Positions 2,217 to 52,140 of a stretch of 64,000 nt of DNA are shown here, piece after piece. The notes below the pieces were generated by a model. That model saw only the letters and a list, made by a program, of their open reading frames with translations, searched no databases and was not told the origin of the DNA. This DNA comes from Nitrospirota bacterium (GTDB lineage Bacteria > Nitrospirota > UBA9217), in the NCBI GenBank assembly GCA_037444505.1, contig JBBIMH010000017.1, positions 1,516 to 65,515 on the forward strand, written 5' to 3'. The number at the start of each line of letters is the position of its first letter. Position 1 is the first letter of the stretch. Position numbers and translations under genes: made by a program.

Positions 2217-2813
2217 GTGGCTGATTTTTTTATGAAGATCCTATCTGCGGAATTCATCAAGAGCGCCGTGAGGCCAGAGCACTATCCTGCCGACAGAGGG
2301 CCGCAGATTGCATTCGCAGGCCGCTCCAATGTCGGCAAATCTTCCCTCATAAACGCCCTTCTCAATAGGAGGGGTCTCGTCAAGGTGAGCTCTACCCCGG
2401 GCAAGACCCAGACTATCAACTTCTTCCTTATCAACAACCGATTCTATTTTGTGGATCTTCCGGGATATGGATATGCGAAGGTTCCCCGCGTGGTGTTGGA
2501 GGCCTGGCCTATTATGATAGAAGGTTACTTCAAGGCGACGCGGGAGCTGAAGGCGGTGGTCGTTCTCATGGATTCGAGAAGACAGCCCGACCGGAGAGAT
2601 ATTCGTTTGAAGGAGTGGCTCGGCCACTATGGGATACCCGCCGTCTATGTGCTTACAAAGGCCGACAAGCTTTCTCGAGTAGAGTTGCACAAGGCCGTGC
2701 GCGATGCCGAAACGGTGTTCGGGACTGAGCAGCCTATTATTCCTACTTCAGCCGAAACCGGCATGGGACTGAAGGAGCTTTGGAGAGAGATCGAGCTGCG
2801 GCTCGAGTTGTGA
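2217..2813 (+). CDS. engB: Ribosome biogenesis GTP-binding protein EngB/YsxC/YihA
   Basis: Carries GRSNVGKSSLINALL (G1), DLPGYGYAKV and TKADK (G4). The start is ambiguous: GTG at 2217 or ATG at 2232. Confidence 0.9.
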   Translation: MADFFMKILSAEFIKSAVRPEHYPADRGPQIAFAGRSNVGKSSLINALLNRRGLVKVSSTPGKTQTINFFLINNRFYFVDLPGYGYAKVPRVVLEAWPIMIEGYFKATRELKAVVVLMDSRRQPDRRDIRLKEWLGHYGIPAVYVLTKADKLSRVELHKAVRDAETVFGTEQPIIPTSAETGMGLKELWREIELRLEL

Positions 2814-2818
2814 AATTC

Positions 2819-3042
2819 GGCCCATCGAGTATAATAGAGCAAGTTATAATTTCGGATACAGCCTGGCGGGGTGTGCCTTCATGTCTTTTAGAACGCGATG
2901 AATATTATATCTGTGTATTGTGAATATATAACCCTTGGCCTCATGTATTAGCGCTGTGTCTGTTATGCTGATCTTCGCCTAAGGCGCTCTAAAAGTCATT
3001 TCGGCACGCCCCGCCAGCCGGCACCAAAAAACTCCATGGTCC
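2819..3042 (+). mobile_element. MITE copy 1 (224 bp, non-autonomous hairpin element)
   Basis: Terminal inverted repeats are GGCCCATCGAG (left) and GGACCATGGAG (reverse complement of the right end). An exact 8-bp direct repeat TGAAATTC flanks it at 2811-2818 and 3043-3050. It is homologous to 14992-15219 and 22558-22784. It contains a long internal hairpin and no conserved ORF. Confidence 0.85.
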
Positions 3043-3091
3043 TGAAATTCTCGGTCCAGCGGCCTGGGATATGACGCGGTCATTATTTCGC

Positions 3092-3120
3092 TTGATACGC
3101 CCTGTATGAAATAGTATAAT
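3092..3120 (+). promoter_or_regulatory. Sigma-70-type promoter candidate for the redoxin gene
   Basis: TTGATA (3092-3097), 17-nt spacer, TATAAT (3115-3120), about 20 nt upstream of the start codon. Confidence 0.45.
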
Positions 3121-3936: not shown

Positions 3937-5058
3937 ATGAAACGAAATATACTGCTTGCATCGGCCGGAACAGTTGCGCTCGGCCTTTTTATCTCCATAT
4001 TCTGGGTAGCGCTCATTCTGAAAGATCTCCCGGATGTCTCCGTCCTTAAGCGCTATCGGCCTGCGGCCGCCGCCGAGGTCTTAGACAGCGAGGGCAGGCT
4101 GCTCGGCGTATTTTCAGACCGCTCATTCCGCATATGGGTCCCTCTTTCTTCCCTCTCGGATAATATAGTCAAGGCTGTTGTGACTGCAGAAGACGATACA
4201 TTCTTCGAGCACCAGGGCGTCAACGTCAAGGCGACGTGGGAGGCCTTTATACACGACGTAAAAAAGGGGAGGTTTGCTCGGGGAGGCAGTACGATCACGC
4301 AGCAGATGATCAAGAATGTCCTGCTTTCGCGCGAAAAGACCATATCGAGAAAGGTCAGGGAGGTCATACTCGCCTACCGTGCGGAGAATATACTCACTAA
4401 GCGCCAGATTCTCGAAATATACCTCAATGTGGTCGAATGGGGAGAGAACATATACGGCATTGAGGCGGCGAGCAGGTTCTATTTCGACAAACACGCCTCT
4501 GAACTCAATGTCTCCGAGGCGGCGCTGCTCGCAGGCATGCTGCCCAATCCGCGATATTTCAACCCATTCAAGCGTATGGATAAGGCACGTGAACGACAAC
4601 AGCGGGTCCTGTTCAACATGTTTCAGGCGAAACACCTGACCGAGGAGGAATATGAGGCCGCATTAAGCGAGGATATCCGTCTGAGACAGTGGACTTCGGA
4701 GAGGTTTGGCTTGTGGGGTGCGGAGGACTCGAACGGCAGACCGTGCCACATCAAGGCGCTGGAGCAGGTGCTTCTTTCTATATATGGAGAGCACGGGCTG
4801 TATCGCCAGGGTCTGAAGATAAGGACATCGATAGACAAGGAGCTGCAGGATAATTTCCACTCAGCCGCCCATCTGCCTGATGAGGTAGTCCTCGTCATGG
4901 ACAGGGGCGTGGTCAGGGCCATAGCGTGTACGGATGAAACTACCGTTGGTTCCGTGCTGGACCATCTTGGACCGCCGTATGATGGATATGAATACACGGT
5001 CGTTCCTGTGGAGTCGATAAAACCCGAAGATGTACTGCTCGGCGAGGGCGGGGGATAG
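3937..5058 (+). CDS. mtgA: Monofunctional peptidoglycan glycosyltransferase (GT51) with a C-terminal extension
   Basis: N-terminal TM helix and GT51 motifs (EDDTFFEHQG, GGSTITQQMIKN, RKVREV). No transpeptidase domain. An extra ~130 aa of unknown function follows the GT51 domain. Confidence 0.8.
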   Translation: MKRNILLASAGTVALGLFISIFWVALILKDLPDVSVLKRYRPAAAAEVLDSEGRLLGVFSDRSFRIWVPLSSLSDNIVKAVVTAEDDTFFEHQGVNVKATWEAFIHDVKKGRFARGGSTITQQMIKNVLLSREKTISRKVREVILAYRAENILTKRQILEIYLNVVEWGENIYGIEAASRFYFDKHASELNVSEAALLAGMLPNPRYFNPFKRMDKARERQQRVLFNMFQAKHLTEEEYEAALSEDIRLRQWTSERFGLWGAEDSNGRPCHIKALEQVLLSIYGEHGLYRQGLKIRTSIDKELQDNFHSAAHLPDEVVLVMDRGVVRAIACTDETTVGSVLDHLGPPYDGYEYTVVPVESIKPEDVLLGEGGG

Positions 5059-5078
5059 GACAACGCTCGTCCGCTGCA

Positions 5079-6044
5079 TCAAAATTCTATATTGGGCCTG
5101 AGTATGATCTGGAAGTCGTCGCTTTCTCTACCCGCGGCAAGGGGACCGGAGTACTTCCGGGCCGACTCCCACACGAATCCCATAGCGAATGTGAATGCCA
5201 TCTTCTTCTTTTCGAAAGGCCATTTCTTGTCCACGAAGAAATAGTGTCTGATGGCGCCGAACCCTCTGCGGTTCATATCAAAGGTATATTCGAATCCGCT
5301 GTTGTTGAGTATGGAAGACCGCTCGATTTTATAATCGAGCCTGCTCCTTCTGAGAGAAATATAAATGATGTCCGTGATGTAAGGGTTCTCATGGAGCTTT
5401 GCGCCAACCCGGAAGCTCCAGCTCAGCTTACGCACCGAAGACTTTCTGTCTCCTTTCACCTTCCACTCAAATTCTCGCCAGTCGTCCTTTATCATCTCGT
5501 TGTCCTTGATGTGATAGTTGCCTGCGCTCGCAAGAAATCCGGCATATCCCTTCCCTTTCATGTCGGCGTGTCCCGGGAGGTCGAAGTCGATCACATTGCC
5601 GACGAGCACCGACGCCGCCCAGGGTTCTTCAAATCCGGTCGTGATCGTCTTTACCCAATTGAAACTTCCGGATATTTCTGCATTGTCATAGAACCGCCTA
5701 TGCTCTCTCTTTATATACGTCCCCAGATAGGGTAGGGGGTTTATGCTGGCCTCGAGGACGAGATATCGTGGAAGCAACGACTGCGAAAACAATATTCTGT
5801 ATATCTCCGTTTCAGGCCGCTCTCCAAGGTGCCGGATCGGCTTATCCGTGAGCGAGAAGGTGACGCTCGCATTGGTGTAGTATGCGTCCAGCTCGAGATC
5901 GAACTCTATACGCCTCTGGATTTCATCATCGCTTGCGCCGGCCTCCGCGCCCGGAACGGCTGAGGGTGTAAAAATCATCATTGCGCAGAGCAGTGTCTGC
6001 GCAAGACGTGATAACAGCGCACGTGTACGCGCCGATTGGCACAT
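5079..6044 (-). CDS. Hypothetical outer-membrane beta-barrel protein
   Basis: Signal-peptide-like N-terminus (MCQSARTRALLSRLAQTLLCAMMIFTPSAVPGAEA), alternating beta-strand-like sequence, and a C-terminal ...ILRPNIEF ending in Phe. The start at 6044 was chosen because TATAAT (6051-6056) lies 6 nt upstream; the 6116 start would overlap smc. Confidence 0.6.
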   Translation of the reverse strand: MCQSARTRALLSRLAQTLLCAMMIFTPSAVPGAEAGASDDEIQRRIEFDLELDAYYTNASVTFSLTDKPIRHLGERPETEIYRILFSQSLLPRYLVLEASINPLPYLGTYIKREHRRFYDNAEISGSFNWVKTITTGFEEPWAASVLVGNVIDFDLPGHADMKGKGYAGFLASAGNYHIKDNEMIKDDWREFEWKVKGDRKSSVRKLSWSFRVGAKLHENPYITDIIYISLRRSRLDYKIERSSILNNSGFEYTFDMNRRGFGAIRHYFFVDKKWPFEKKKMAFTFAMGFVWESARKYSGPLAAGRESDDFQIILRPNIEF

Positions 6045-14875: not shown

Positions 14876-14991
14876 GTGGGTTCGCCTGGATTAGATTAGA
14901 TTATGATAAAATTGAAAAAGGTCGCAATGGAAAAAAATAGATCGCAGGCGCAATGGAAAAAGGTAACCCTTCAAAAGACAGTATTTTTTTA

Positions 14992-15219
14992 GGCTCATTG
15001 CATATAAATGGTGAAAATCATAATTTCAGATAAGGCCCGGCAGGGCATGTCTTCATGACTTTTATAACGCGATGAATATTATATTTGTATATTGTGAATA
15101 TATAACCCTCGGCCTCATGGATCAGCGTTGTGTCTGTTATGCTGATTGCCGTCTAAGGTGTCGCTCTAAAAGGCATTCCGGCACACCCTGCCGGGCTGCA
15201 TCAAAAAACGTGATGAGCC
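14992..15219 (+). mobile_element. MITE copy 2 (228 bp)
   Basis: Termini are GGCTCATTGCA (left) and GGCTCATCACG (reverse complement of the right end). It shares the hairpin and ~90-nt core with copies 1 and 3. The flanks are T-rich and only imperfectly duplicated (TTTTTTTA vs TATTTTTC). Confidence 0.8.
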
Positions 15220-15304
15220 TATTTTTCTCTATCCTACGGTCAAAAGGCTTTTTACGAATACGCTGGGATCATCAAGCATCGCACGCTATTTCAAAGGAGC
15301 CTAT

Positions 15305-22548: not shown

Positions 22549-22557
22549 AGGACAAAT

Positions 22558-22784
22558 GGCTCATCGCGTATAATAATGCAAATGACAATTTCAGATAGAG
22601 CCTAACAGGGTATGCCTTCATGACTTTTAGAATGAGATAAATATCATATCTGTGTATTGTGAATATAAAACCTTCGGCCTCATGAATCAGCGCTGTGTCT
22701 GTTATGCAGGTCTCTGCCTAAGGTATCGCTCTAAAAGTCATTCCGGCACATCCTGCAGGCCTGCACCAAAAAACGTGATGAGCC
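22558..22784 (+). mobile_element. MITE copy 3 (227 bp)
   Basis: Termini are GGCTCATCGCG (left) and GGCTCATCACG (reverse complement of the right end). An exact 8-bp direct repeat GGACAAAT flanks it at 22550-22557 and 22785-22792. Confidence 0.88.
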
Positions 22785-22804
22785 GGACAAATAGTATCAG
22801 GCGG

Positions 22805-25667: not shown

Positions 25668-26846
25668 TTATGAAGGCAGCCTGCCTCTATTTCTCATGCC
25701 GCGGAAGAACTCGATGACGCTGCGCATGATGCCCATGTCTATTTCATGACCCCTGATGAACACCGTCGCAATTGCGGCGACCGTCATGATGGCATTAGGT
25801 ATCCAGTAGGCGGCGGCCGGAGAGAGGGTGCCCGCCTCTGCGAGGCTCTTTCCCGCCCCGAGCAGTACATAGTATGCCAGAAACACTCCGAGGGAGATCG
25901 TTATCCCTACGGACTTCGCTGTTCGGCTGCGCCGTATCCCGAGCGGTGCACCCATGACACCGAACAGCAAGCAGGCGAACGGCACGGAGAGCCTTGTCTG
26001 GAGTTCTCCTTCAATTTGGATTGAAGGCCGCCCTTCTTTCTTGAGCCTTCTTGCGTCACGCATCAGTCTCAGCGTATCCGTCTCTTTATAGTCTTTATCA
26101 ATCGTACCATTAAGCAGCAAGGCCTTGCTGATATCGAGATACAGTCTGCCCCTGTCGAAGTGCGACAGGCTGTATGAATCTCCGTCCTTCGCCTGGGCGT
26201 GTATGTCGCCCTCTTCCATGGAAAGAGTCACGCTCAATGCACCCGGATCTGCGATGAGCCTTCCGCGTTTCGCGGTGATAACGAGCGGCGAAGATTTCAC
26301 GCGTTCGTCGGATATGAAGATGCCTTCCATATTATCGAGAGACTTTATCCTGTCCACGTATATGACGATGCCGTCGAAGGTGTTGGTAAACACGCCTTCT
26401 TCTATGCCCACCAGGGCGCGTGACCTGACCATGGCGAACAGGTGCTCTTTCGTGGCGCGGTTGGCATCGGGAAGTATTACGAGCGATATGACCGCCGTGA
26501 GCAGAAACGTGAACAGCGAGAATACGACCACGGGCCTGAGCATGGAGTATAGGCTTATCCTCGAGGCCTTCATCGCTATGACCTCCGCATCGGATGACAA
26601 CCTCCCGAATGCGGAAACCGATGCGATAAGCGTCGCCATAGGGATGGTGATGATGAGGAAGCCGGGCATGATATATAGAAAGAGCTTGAGCGTCGAATAG
26701 AGAGTGGCGCCCTTGGACACCACTAGCTCTGCGAGCCTGAACATCTTCTGTATGAAGAATACGAGGGTGAGGGTGGCCAACGAGAGCAAAAACGGTACGA
26801 CTAGCTCTCTGAGGATATATCTATCGAGTATCCTGAACTTGAACAT
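25668..26846 (-). CDS. lptF: LPS export ABC permease LptF (YjgP/YjgQ family)
   Basis: N-terminal ILDRYILRELVVPF motif with the same architecture as lptG. ATG 26846 abuts the stop (26848-26850) of the upstream gene. Confidence 0.85.
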   Translation of the reverse strand: MFKFRILDRYILRELVVPFLLSLATLTLVFFIQKMFRLAELVVSKGATLYSTLKLFLYIMPGFLIITIPMATLIASVSAFGRLSSDAEVIAMKASRISLYSMLRPVVVFSLFTFLLTAVISLVILPDANRATKEHLFAMVRSRALVGIEEGVFTNTFDGIVIYVDRIKSLDNMEGIFISDERVKSSPLVITAKRGRLIADPGALSVTLSMEEGDIHAQAKDGDSYSLSHFDRGRLYLDISKALLLNGTIDKDYKETDTLRLMRDARRLKKEGRPSIQIEGELQTRLSVPFACLLFGVMGAPLGIRRSRTAKSVGITISLGVFLAYYVLLGAGKSLAEAGTLSPAAAYWIPNAIMTVAAIATVFIRGHEIDMGIMRSVIEFFRGMRNRGRLPS

Positions 26847-46543: not shown

Positions 46544-46977
46544 AAACCTCCTGCAACAGTATCAGTATCGTCAATAACAAACCACAAAGCCCTCAAAGAA
46601 GGACATGAATGAAGGAGCAAAACCCCTCTGTGTCCTCATTACCCATCTGCTACCTTTCATCACCGACTCCGTATGTTTTTGTCATGTATTTAACCTCATG
46701 AGGACACCGGCATTTTATTGAAATTCCTCTGTGCTGTCAGTGGTTTTATCTCTTTATTTCATGAAACGTTTGACAATACCCGGTATCACGACATGTCAAA
46801 TTCCATGTACTGAGCTTGTCTGATGCAACGCCTCGCTCAGTATTAGGCTCAATTATAAAGGATTTACCTTCATAGTCAACATCCGGTTGTGCCTTTCATG
46901 GACAATAGCTGAGCCGCCTGCGCGACCCCTGCCTTCGAGTTGCGATGCCGGGTTCTTAATGCCTGTATTCCCGCTAT

Positions 46978-46992
46978 TGACAAAATTTGTCA
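46978..46992. promoter_or_regulatory. Candidate enhancer-binding-protein site (UAS) for the pilA sigma-54 promoter
   Basis: The palindrome TGACA-AAATT-TGTCA lies about 75-90 bp upstream of the -24 element. A related pair, TTTGACA (46769-46775) and TGTCAAA (46794-46800), lies further upstream. Confidence 0.3.
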
Positions 46993-47065
46993 CCATGGCC
47001 TGACGTAATCGGCCCATTTCGACACTATCTCTAATATAACTATTCTAAATTAAATACTTTTTTTC

Positions 47066-47081
47066 TGGCATGCAATCTGCA
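47066..47081 (+). promoter_or_regulatory. Sigma-54 (-24/-12) promoter of pilA
   Basis: TGGCAT-GCAAT-CTGCA matches TGGCAC-N5-TTGCA with exact GG/GC spacing. It lies 154 nt upstream of the pilA ATG. Confidence 0.6.
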
Positions 47082-47234
47082 TAATAGACAGACGAAAAGC
47101 CCGGGGCATGGAAGGAGGTGAGACAACCCATAAGAAGCCCTGGGTCAAACACGCCATGGATAGGGTTCAAGACGGGTTCACTATACAAAAATAAACCGTG
47201 GCGGAAAATTTGATAATTTTTATGGGAGGATAAA

Positions 47235-49888: not shown

Positions 49889-50839
49889 ATGCATGTATTA
49901 AGGATTGAGAAGTTGACAAAGATTTATAAACTGGCGGGGCACACATTTACCGCCCTGTCTGCTTTGGACTTAAGCATCGAACAAGGCGAGGTGTTCGGCT
50001 TTCTCGGGCCGAACGGAGCGGGCAAAACTACGACAATAAAAATTCTTGTCAATCTGATATTCCCTACAAGCGGTAAGGCTTGGATATTTGGTGATGATTG
50101 CTCTCTGCCTGAAGCGAGGAGAAGAATAGGTTTCTTGCCTGAGATGCCAATGTTTTACGATTATCTTACATTAGAGGAATTACTGCGGTTCGGGGGTGAA
50201 ACGGCGGGTTTAAGTAAGGCGCTTATAAAAACAAGGATAGATCATCTACTCGTTCTGCTCGACATGGAGCGGGCGCGGAATTTGAGGATAAGGAAGTTTT
50301 CAAAGGGCATGCAGCAGCGGGCCGGTCTGGCCTATGCGCTTATGGGTGACCCCGATGTCTTGATCCTGGATGAGCCCATGAGCGGGCTCGATCCTATAGG
50401 CAGGAAGGATTTCGTTGATCTTATTAGAAAGCTCAAGGCCGAAGGCAAAACGATTTTCTTCAGCTCGCATGTGCTTTCAGATATTGAGAACCTATGCGAC
50501 CGCGTCGGAATCCTGGTCAAAGGTGAGCTTAAAAAGGTAGGCAATGTCTCGGAGCTGCTGAGAGCCGAGGATGGATTCCTGGTCAGGGTAAGCGGATTGG
50601 ATGGTGGAGGAAAGGAATATTTAGAGCAACTGGGCGTCCATGTCTCGGTCGATGGAAATGCGCTCTCCCTCCGTGTCACAAGGGATAAGGTCATGGATGT
50701 CATGGATATTATTAAGGCACGAAAGGCTTCGATCGCTTCGATCGATACCATGCGCAAGTCTCTCGAAGATATATTTATGGAAGTAGTTCAACAGAATCAA
50801 TCATCAGTCAGTCCTACCCCCTCTTCTCCTCATGCCTGA
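49889..50839 (+). CDS. ABC transporter ATP-binding protein
   Basis: Walker A GPNGAGKTT, signature FSKGMQQR and Walker B VLILDEP, plus a C-terminal accessory domain. Confidence 0.92.
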   Translation: MHVLRIEKLTKIYKLAGHTFTALSALDLSIEQGEVFGFLGPNGAGKTTTIKILVNLIFPTSGKAWIFGDDCSLPEARRRIGFLPEMPMFYDYLTLEELLRFGGETAGLSKALIKTRIDHLLVLLDMERARNLRIRKFSKGMQQRAGLAYALMGDPDVLILDEPMSGLDPIGRKDFVDLIRKLKAEGKTIFFSSHVLSDIENLCDRVGILVKGELKKVGNVSELLRAEDGFLVRVSGLDGGGKEYLEQLGVHVSVDGNALSLRVTRDKVMDVMDIIKARKASIASIDTMRKSLEDIFMEVVQQNQSSVSPTPSSPHA

Positions 50840-50860
50840 TGTCGAGGCGTTTCAGGCTCT
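50820..50860 (+). repeat. Direct repeat A (relic copy of the 3' end of gene 51721-52140)
   Basis: CCTCTTCTCCTCATGCCTGATGTCGAGGCGTTTCAGGCTCT matches 51733-51772 at about 36 of 41 positions. Read on the minus strand it encodes ...RLDIRHEEKRG*. Confidence 0.8.
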
Positions 50861-51134: not shown

Positions 51135-51163
51135 TTGAGTGTGATATGAGGGAGGTGATTTTC

Positions 51164-51718
51164 ATGGGGGCGACAGCGACTGCTGGTGGCAGGCGATATA
51201 CCTATGCTGATTATGAAAAACTTCCAGAGGGCGCCCCGTACCAGCTGATTGGAGGAGAACTCGTCATGACGCCCGCACCGACGCCTTATCATCAGAGGAT
51301 TTTAAGGAAGATCGGATATGCGCTCGTAACGTTTATTGAGGCAAAGGGCCTGGGAGAAATTCTGTACGCTCCTATAGATGTCTATCTTTCAGAGACTGAA
51401 ACCTATCAGCCGGATATAATATTCATTTCAAAGGAGAGGGCAGGTATAATAGGTGAAAAAAAGATAGAGGGCGCTCCCGATCTGGTAGTAGAAATACTCT
51501 CTCCTGCAACCGCCTATTATGATTTGCGGCAGAAGATGCATGTGTATGAAGGCTTCGGGGTGAGGGAATACTGGATCGTTGATCCGATTGAAAAGGCAGT
51601 TGATATCTATGAAAATCCGGGGCGGGAATTCAGGCTGTTCGGCGCAGCACGTGAAACCGGAGTAATCCGTTCGAAGCTGCTTTCAGGCTTTGAGATAGAT
51701 TTGGCTACGATATTCTGA
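51164..51718 (+). CDS. Uma2 family endonuclease (DUF820, PD-(D/E)xK-like)
   Basis: YTYADYEKLPEGAPYQLIGGELVMTPAPTPYHQ...PDIIFIS...APDLVVEILSP...D...K...Y...GVREYWIVDP is the typical Uma2 pattern. GGGAGG RBS 8 nt before ATG 51164. Confidence 0.88.
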   Translation: MGATATAGGRRYTYADYEKLPEGAPYQLIGGELVMTPAPTPYHQRILRKIGYALVTFIEAKGLGEILYAPIDVYLSETETYQPDIIFISKERAGIIGEKKIEGAPDLVVEILSPATAYYDLRQKMHVYEGFGVREYWIVDPIEKAVDIYENPGREFRLFGAARETGVIRSKLLSGFEIDLATIF

Positions 51719-51720
51719 TC

Positions 51721-52140
51721 TCACCTCCTCTTCCTCTTCTCCTCGTGCCTGATGTCGAGTCGATTGAGCTCTTCTATATTTTTGCTGAGGCGTTCTATCG
51801 TTTTGAGTGCCTGGCGCCATGTTTTCGCCTCTTCCGCCTTTTCGTGGGTCGGATACAGTCTTAGGAATTCTTCGAATTCCTGCAATGCCTTGGGGTAGTC
51901 GGCCTGGGGGTTGTCGTAGGCGACGAGGGTATAGGCGAGCCGGAACCTCGCCTCTGCGGAAATATCCGGATCGGAATTGTTTTTGATAATAGCCATGTAG
52001 GCTGATACTGCCTCGGTGTATTTCTTTTCAGATGCGAGTTTGTCTGCGGCCGTGAGCTCGCTGACAGGATGTGTCAGAGATGCGCAGCCTGTGCCGAGGA
52101 TGGTCACTGCAAATAGTATGGAAACAACAGCCTTAGACAT
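51721..52140 (-). CDS. TPR-like lipoprotein (BamD/YbgF-like fold)
   Basis: Signal peptide ending in ILGTGC, TPR-like helices (YTEAVSAYMAII, ARFRLAYTLVAY, ALQEFEEFLRLYP) and a basic C-terminal tail. The start is uncertain (52140 or 52185). Confidence 0.65.
   Translation of the reverse strand: MSKAVVSILFAVTILGTGCASLTHPVSELTAADKLASEKKYTEAVSAYMAIIKNNSDPDISAEARFRLAYTLVAYDNPQADYPKALQEFEEFLRLYPTHEKAEEAKTWRQALKTIERLSKNIEELNRLDIRHEEKRKRR
51733..51772 (+). repeat. Direct repeat B (within the 3' end of the lipoprotein gene)
   Basis: CCTCTTCTCCTCGTGCCTGATGTCGAGTCGATTGAGCTCT is the partner of repeat A, 913 bp away. Confidence 0.8.

Follow-up and report, generated by a model that had tools for sequence, protein, structure and literature searches.

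A probable ISL3-related MITE family in a 64-kb stretch of an uncultivated Nitrospirota genome

The 64-kb stretch of Nitrospirota DNA analysed here (referred to as the window) contains three intergenic segments that resemble one another, which raises the question of whether they are copies of a mobile element or a conserved non-mobile feature, such as a regulatory RNA, that looks like one. [quoted passage not shown] The direct observations are a multi-copy family, imperfect terminal inverted repeats, 8-bp duplications, empty and filled sites in relatives, ISL3-like termini and no coding capacity.

The three segments had been described in the initial annotation as homologous, in the same orientation and 224–228 bp long, and this is confirmed by reading of the sequence, by a MAFFT alignment and by nhmmer and blastn searches. 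All of them are intergenic and lie on the + strand:

2819 to 3042, + strand: MITE copy 1, 224 bp, preceded by the engB stop codon and followed by the promoter of a tlpA/AhpC-like gene.
14992 to 15219, + strand: MITE copy 2, 228 bp, between two divergent genes, a transglutaminase-like one (- strand) and a hypothetical one (+ strand).
22558 to 22784, + strand: MITE copy 3, 227 bp, between the stop codon of a GNAT gene (- strand) and the promoter of a Crp/Fnr-family gene (- strand).

A profile built from the three copies recovers each of them in the 64-kb window with nhmmer E-values of 1e-77 to 1e-79, and its other matches in the window are the reverse-complement self-match of each copy, which results from the internal inverted symmetry of the element. 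No fourth copy or fragment was detected in the 64-kb window by nhmmer, blastn or a repeat finder, and the latter gave no second repeat family of comparable kind in the window. The pairwise identity of the copies is 80–83% (about 82% overall, about 83% by blastn), and it varies along the element: the left arm has 78%, the right arm 81% and the central 58 columns 90%. The core identity of 85–90% first estimated by eye is therefore right for these central columns (about 90%) and too high for the element as a whole.

Elsewhere in the window, a 36-nt direct repeat (50820–50855 and 51733–51768, 89% identical, with a spacing of 913 nt) brackets the gene of a putative restriction endonuclease of the Uma2 family (51146–51718); this bracketing suggests that a gene end was duplicated when the small Uma2 cassette was inserted.

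Every copy starts with GGC(T/C)CAT and finishes with ATG(A/G)(G/T)CC, so the shared terminal inverted repeats with GGCYCAT ends are as they had been described. The left and right termini are GGCCCATCGAG and GGACCATGGAG in copy 1, GGCTCATTGCA and GGCTCATCACG in copy 2, and GGCTCATCGCG and GGCTCATCACG in copy 3, whose two ends agree with each other at 17 of 23 positions when read from the sequence. The terminal helix, which consists of 12 pairs, is 91.7% paired. The TATAAT/TATAAA hexamer pointed out earlier inside the left terminus occupies positions 12–17 of the element in all three copies. Each element comprises two arms, the left one of about 80 bp and the right one of about 60–80 bp, which are imperfect inverted copies of each other, and between them a non-palindromic core of about 60–85 bp. 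The parts of the element are given here for copy 3:

22558 to 22581, + strand: left terminal inverted repeat, GGCTCATCGCGTATAATAATGCAA, ISL3-like, which matches the right inverted repeat (IRR) of the insertion sequence ISArsp7 at 16 of 24 positions in fixed register.
22599 to 22638, + strand: left subterminal hairpin arm (alignment columns 43–82), from RNAalifold and pair counts.
22651 to 22708, + strand: non-palindromic central core, TGTGTATTGTGAATATA...GTGTCTGTTATGC (alignment columns 95–152), the best-conserved part.
22725 to 22762, + strand: right subterminal hairpin arm (alignment columns 169–206), from RNAalifold and pair counts.
22761 to 22784, - strand: right terminal inverted repeat, which reads inward GGCTCATCACGTTTTTTGGTGCAG and matches the ISArsp7 IRR at 18 of 24 positions.

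The long subterminal hairpin that had been proposed does exist: in copy 1 the main helix pairs 2860–2877 with 3003–3020, and in the alignment the pairing of the 48 outer pairs amounts to 91.5% and drops to 35–40% when the partner is slid by 1–3 columns, which shows that the inverted symmetry is real. Since the arms are imperfect inverted copies of each other, either strand can form the hairpin. As a matter of fact, each strand folds into one long hairpin, with minimum free energies of -73 and -79.5 kcal/mol (z = -4.7 and -5.9), and the consensus folds of the two strands have similar energies (-63.9 and -70.7). We attempted to assign the element to a strand on the basis of fold energies or wobble pairs and rejected the approach: both strands fold and neither is favoured. 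An arm–core–arm layout of this kind is expected of an internally deleted insertion sequence or of a MITE, and no RNA function is needed to account for it.

The flanks of copies 1 and 3 (two copies out of three) consist of exact 8-bp duplications:

2811 to 2818, no strand assigned: left target-site duplicate of copy 1, TGAAATTC, which includes the engB stop codon TGA (2811–2813).
3043 to 3050, no strand assigned: right target-site duplicate of copy 1, TGAAATTC; this 8-mer also follows the element in the relative L084.
22550 to 22557, no strand assigned: left target-site duplicate of copy 3, GGACAAAT, from reading of the sequence.
22785 to 22792, no strand assigned: right target-site duplicate of copy 3, GGACAAAT, from reading of the sequence.

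The exact duplications first attributed to the family are thus found at copies 1 and 3 and not at copy 2, whose flanks (TTTTTTTA at 14984–14991 and TATTTTTC at 15220–15227) agree at 6 of 8 positions in T-rich DNA, which is not informative. That the duplicated target of copy 1 takes in the engB stop codon had been recognised from the start; this copy lies directly 3' of that codon, and the tlpA-like promoter follows 50 nt downstream of it. Copy 3 is located 13 nt past the stop codon of the GNAT gene and 2 nt from the -35 element of the promoter of the Crp/Fnr-family gene (the promoter-like site, 22548–22520 on the - strand, begins 2 nt from the left duplicate). The gene contexts of the three copies are unrelated, their orientation relative to the neighbouring genes is inconsistent, and the occurrence of three copies out of three on one chromosomal strand is not significant. 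All three insertions, located at the ends of genes or close outside promoters, appear to be tolerated.

The transposon-like appearance of these segments might still be misleading if they were a conserved non-mobile intergenic element, such as a REP-like repeat or a cis-regulatory RNA, and the relatives of the organism bear on this directly. They were reached through the proteins encoded on either side of copy 1, EngB and the TlpA/AhpC-like protein; in GTDB representative genomes, the EngB relatives are at most 54% identical among the matches listed and gave no useful orthologous sites. The organism names borne by proteins of moderate similarity indicate Nitrospirota. The initial annotation had suggested looking for empty sites, and these were found. 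In the relatives L002 and L003 (EngB 88% and 87% identical, respectively), the engB–tlpA site contains no element: a single copy of the target 8-mer, TGACATCC in L002 and TGAAATGC in L003, directly follows engB, and the sequence then continues into the TTGATA-17-TATAAT promoter region as it does after copy 1 in the window. L085, which is more distantly related, also has an empty site. The element is present at the orthologous engB site in a closer relative (sample SRR24079446, EngB 93% identical): contig L001 stops after the first 50 nt of the element, and contig L084 opens within the right part of the element and goes on with CATGGGCC, the 8-mer TGAAATTC and tcggtccagc, as in the window. That the two contigs break inside the element is the effect expected of a dispersed repeat on short-read assembly.

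Contig L084 also contains, at positions 2141–2169, 29 nt of an extra left end, GGCTCATCGCGTATAATGGTGCAAATTAT, 3' of a transglycosylase gene, and the contig stops there; the counterpart of this site in the window, the spacer 5059–5100, has no element. The extra end could be that of another MITE or that of the autonomous parent. Among 90 relative loci (1.3 Mb), the nhmmer model of the element matches L001 and L084 only, and no member of the family was found in the DNA retrieved from the more distant relatives L086–L090. In all, the family is described here from three complete copies and two or three incomplete ones.

A non-mobile element would agree with the fact that all copies are intergenic and on one strand and that the engB site is filled in one relative. 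It is already contradicted by the sites of L002, L003 and L085, which are empty and hold one 8-mer, and it does not predict the exact 8-bp duplications, the three unrelated gene contexts, the extra insertion in a relative or the terminal inverted repeats that resemble those of a transposon family. We regard this explanation as extremely improbable.

Regarding the neighbourhood of copy 1, we note that the tlpA/AhpC-like gene is preceded by a near-consensus sigma-70-type promoter, TTGATA-17-TATAAT (11 of 12 positions, window 3092–3120), which is kept in L002, L003 and L084, with or without the MITE. Gene content seems to have changed repeatedly at the engB 3' junction, since in the distant relative L088 (sample SRR23969305, positions 4534–5332) a toxin–antitoxin pair, HepT-like and Polbeta (MNT) nucleotidyltransferase, lies downstream of engB.

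The MITE reading implies that the transposition functions are supplied by another element. Pfam scans of the 56 open reading frames of at least 100 amino acids in the window revealed no transposase or integrase domain, in agreement with the initial statement that the window holds no transposase. The element itself has no conserved open reading frame, as had also been stated. Copies 2 and 3 have a frame that crosses the core and that is stopped in copy 1; it is indeed open in both of the copies for which it was first described, but its supposed start ATGAATATT reads ATAAATATC in copy 3, which has no ATG. Translated as a pseudo-protein, the open frame of the core has no homologue among 5.8 billion protein clusters. 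Since there is no conserved open reading frame, no homologue of the open frame and no transposase in the window, the element is non-autonomous.

The conserved core, used as an exact pattern, has no match in the genome contig collection, and none in metagenome contigs either, where a relaxed gapped pattern was used as well. The exact patterns of the core and of the left end have no match in viral contigs, and copy 3 gives no blastn match with PLSDB plasmids. Judging from these pattern searches, the family is apparently absent from the collections of genome, metagenome and viral contigs that were scanned, or too diverged in them. The longest stretch of the window without open reading frames measures 691 nt (46544–47234) and precedes a type IV pilin-like (N_methyl) gene.

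Which transposase could move the element? A resemblance to ISL3 had been put forward in the initial annotation, and we compared the element ends, at fixed register, with the published inverted repeats of 9 families (15 ends). ISArsp7 is an ISL3-family insertion sequence of Arthrobacter plasmids, of 1,451 bp, with its own transposase, an 8-bp direct repeat and the inverted repeats GGCTCTTCGCGGTTGGTGGTGAAT (IRL) and GGCTCTTCGCGTTTCGTGGTGAAT (IRR) (PMC6305408); the ISL3 elements of PMC6305408 and PMC11448079 have 8-bp repeats. The comparison supports the proposed resemblance: the mean identity of the element ends with those of ISArsp7 is 60–64% over 24 nt, with 8.3 of 11 positions at the tip. The corresponding values are 49% and 3.6 of 11 for IS256, while ISPst2, the second ISL3 element, reaches 41–48% and the remaining families of the panel have a mean identity of at most 41%; no non-ISL3 family exceeds 4.7 of 11 at the tip. 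The best-preserved ends, for example the right end of copy 3, GGCTCATCACGTTTTTTGGTGCAG, and the extra left end of L084, GGCTCATCGCGTATAATGGTGCAA, match the ISArsp7 repeats at 16–18 of 24 positions. When all 127,952 24-mers of the window are scanned with the ISArsp7 IRR, the right end of copy 3 comes first (18 of 24) and the right end of copy 2 is tied second (17 of 24), both in the exact terminal register, and two of the three top-ranking windows are element ends. Both ends of the element display the ISL3-like pattern GGCTC.TC.CG...TGGTG; position 6 of the terminus is A, where GGCTCTT-type ISL3 ends (ISArsp7 and the Microcystis MITE) have T. The affiliation to ISL3 is well supported as far as the ends and the duplication length can tell, and it is these two features that carry the assignment, since no autonomous partner with matching ends was found.

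The same scan returns, inside an lptF/lptG-like gene (26237–26280), two abutting 24-mers in opposite orientation, GGCTCATCGCAGATCCGGGTGCAT (- strand) and AGCCTTCCGCGTTTCGCGGTGATA (+ strand), each of which matches an ISArsp7 inverted repeat at 17 of 24 positions. These are the only matches outside the MITEs at the 17 of 24 level, and they are probably due to chance.

It may be that the copies are MITEs but are moved by another family that duplicates 8 bp, such as IS256, the IS1595 groups, IS66 or others. Duplications of 8 bp are not unique to ISL3, those of the IS256 family measure 8–9 bp, and no partner element was found in the window. Besides, the left end of the element shares an internal stretch, CGTATAAT.GTG, with the IS256 terminus GATAAAGTCCGTATAATTGTG (13 of 21 positions). 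However, the terminal 9 nt of IS256 are unrelated to those of the element: its terminal 11 nt fit ISArsp7 at 8–10 positions and IS256 at 3–4. The right end has no IS256-like stretch, contrary to the pattern GGCTC.TC.CG...TGGTG, which is present at both ends. This makes a mover other than ISL3 unlikely in our opinion. IS200/IS605, IS110 and TnpB-associated elements lack terminal inverted repeats and 8-bp duplications; both are present here, and an origin as one of these elements, or as a TnpB-associated RNA, was set aside.

If the copies are MITEs of ISL3 type, it may nevertheless be asked whether they have acquired a function in the host. The initial annotation envisaged that the element is transcribed into a structured RNA, starting from the TATAAT hexamer. 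This hexamer would need a -35 element in the flanking DNA, which differs between copies (a chance -35, TTGTGA, beside copy 1 is not conserved), and the hypothesis of an intrinsic promoter at this position was rejected. A weak site, ATGACT-16-TATTAT/TATCAT (9 of 12 positions), is present inside copies 2 and 3, just upstream of the core, but promoter-like sites are no commoner inside the element than in shuffled sequence. We also rejected a terminator function: a single weak site was detected, on the - strand of copy 2, and it is not conserved.

Covariation, which had been suggested as a check on the hairpin, does not support the RNA either. Four stem pairs are changed on both sides, a number that is reached by 67 of 500 column shuffles, and the three-copy alignment contains no double-sided change in the predicted core helices, so that the maintenance of the hairpin does not exceed chance. 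The single orthologous comparison available, between copy 1 of the window and its counterpart in the relative, gives identities of 87% for the arms, 85.6% for engB third codon positions and 95.5% for the neighbouring spacer with the promoter; the rate at which the arms diverge is therefore approximately that of third codon positions. No Rfam 15 family matches the whole window at the gathering score, and none matches copy 3 at E <= 1. Taken together, the lack of a -35 element proper to TATAAT, covariation at chance level, arms that drift like engB third positions and the absence of an Rfam match leave the transcribed structured RNA without support. The core is a different matter: 8 of its 58 columns (95–152) are variable, compared with 53 of the other 170 (p = 0.01 in Fisher's test, the boundaries having been chosen post hoc), and this lower variability is not predicted by pure neutrality.

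A domesticated MITE, in which the core or the hairpin would work as a small RNA, as a processing site (of RNase III or terminator-like) or as a site of protein binding, with effects on the neighbouring genes, could explain the lower variability of the core. The weak internal site upstream of it in copies 2 and 3, the z-scores of the folds, the four stem pairs changed on both sides and the fact that copies 1 and 3 adjoin promoters may be read in the same way, and effects on neighbouring genes have been proposed for Correia and ERIC elements. Against this, the covariation of the stem is matched by shuffling and the core has none, the divergence of the arms is close to that of third positions in engB, the two strands fold with similar ease, a property of any inverted repeat, and the promoter-like sites score 9 of 12 and do not exceed the frequency of shuffled sequence. 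Neither the absence of Rfam matches, even at E <= 1, nor the inconsistent orientation relative to neighbouring genes favours such a role, which we find improbable. A more specific proposal is that the asymmetric 58-nt core, whose columns vary at about half the frequency of those in the arms, is a functional cargo, either a small RNA expressed from ATGACT-N16-TATTAT or a binding site for a host factor or a transposase accessory. If this were true, the element would spread its cargo to gene ends and promoters in the lineage; we give this proposal little credence too.

The reading as an ISL3-derived MITE suggests a mechanism. The transposase would bind the two ends of about 24 bp (GGCTCATCGCG-N5-TGGTG) and cut the target with an 8-bp stagger, and repair of the gaps would produce the 8-bp duplication. 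The autonomous ISL3 partner would carry ends of the form GGCTCATCGCG...CGTGATGAGCC. The copies are old, since they are about 82% identical (about 18% divergence) and copy 1 predates the species-level split from the relative whose EngB is 93% identical, and the family may no longer be mobile or active.

This is real but ordinary mobile DNA, and a MITE linked to ISL3 is already known in Microcystis; our knowledge of how such elements work is unchanged. The present analysis adds an undescribed MITE family, apparently derived from ISL3, in a poorly sampled lineage of uncultivated Nitrospirota. It explains why the assemblies of close relatives break at these loci, and it indicates that the three intergenic segments should not be annotated as genes or as regulatory RNAs. 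The insertions can also be used as dated markers for strain comparison, copy 1 being common to one relative and absent from two.

No MITE of this kind was found for this lineage in the literature searched. The closest known case is a MITE of Microcystis aeruginosa, of 187 nt, with GGCTCTTCG inverted repeats and 8-nt direct repeats, which is attributed to ISL3 transposases; an ISL3 element with matching ends was identified as its partner in that genome (PMC11448079). Like the element described here, it is short and non-coding, it has imperfect terminal inverted repeats (which start with GGCTCTTCG, compared to GGCTCATCG here, 8 of 9 positions), 8-nt direct repeats and a stem–loop fold, and many copies are inserted near genes. 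However, there is no detectable sequence similarity past the tips, the host belongs to another phylum, and the length of 187 nt differs from the 224–228 nt of the present element with its distinct asymmetric core. The MaeMITEb family (PMC2779907) has the same length as the Microcystis ISL3 MITE (PMC11448079).

The repeats of ISArsp7, GGCTCTTCGCG(G/T)TT(G/C)GTGGTGAAT, match the element ends at up to 18 of 24 positions, and both have an 8-bp direct repeat. On the contrary, ISArsp7 measures 1,451 bp and encodes a transposase, whereas the present element is non-coding and of about 225 bp; position 6 is T in the former and A in the latter, and the interior of the left end is GGTTGG and TATAAT, respectively.

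The other elements to which this family can be compared are classical bacterial MITEs with a hairpin fold, the Correia elements of Neisseria, the ERIC elements of enterobacteria and the RUP elements of pneumococci, which are small, palindromic, intergenic and multi-copy, as is the element described here, and which can be co-transcribed with their neighbours. The effects of Correia, ERIC and RUP elements on RNA processing and promoters have experimental support. The duplications that they make are TA or otherwise short, and the transposases to which they are related are of other lineages, unlike the Nitrospirota element with its 8-bp duplications and ISL3-like ends.
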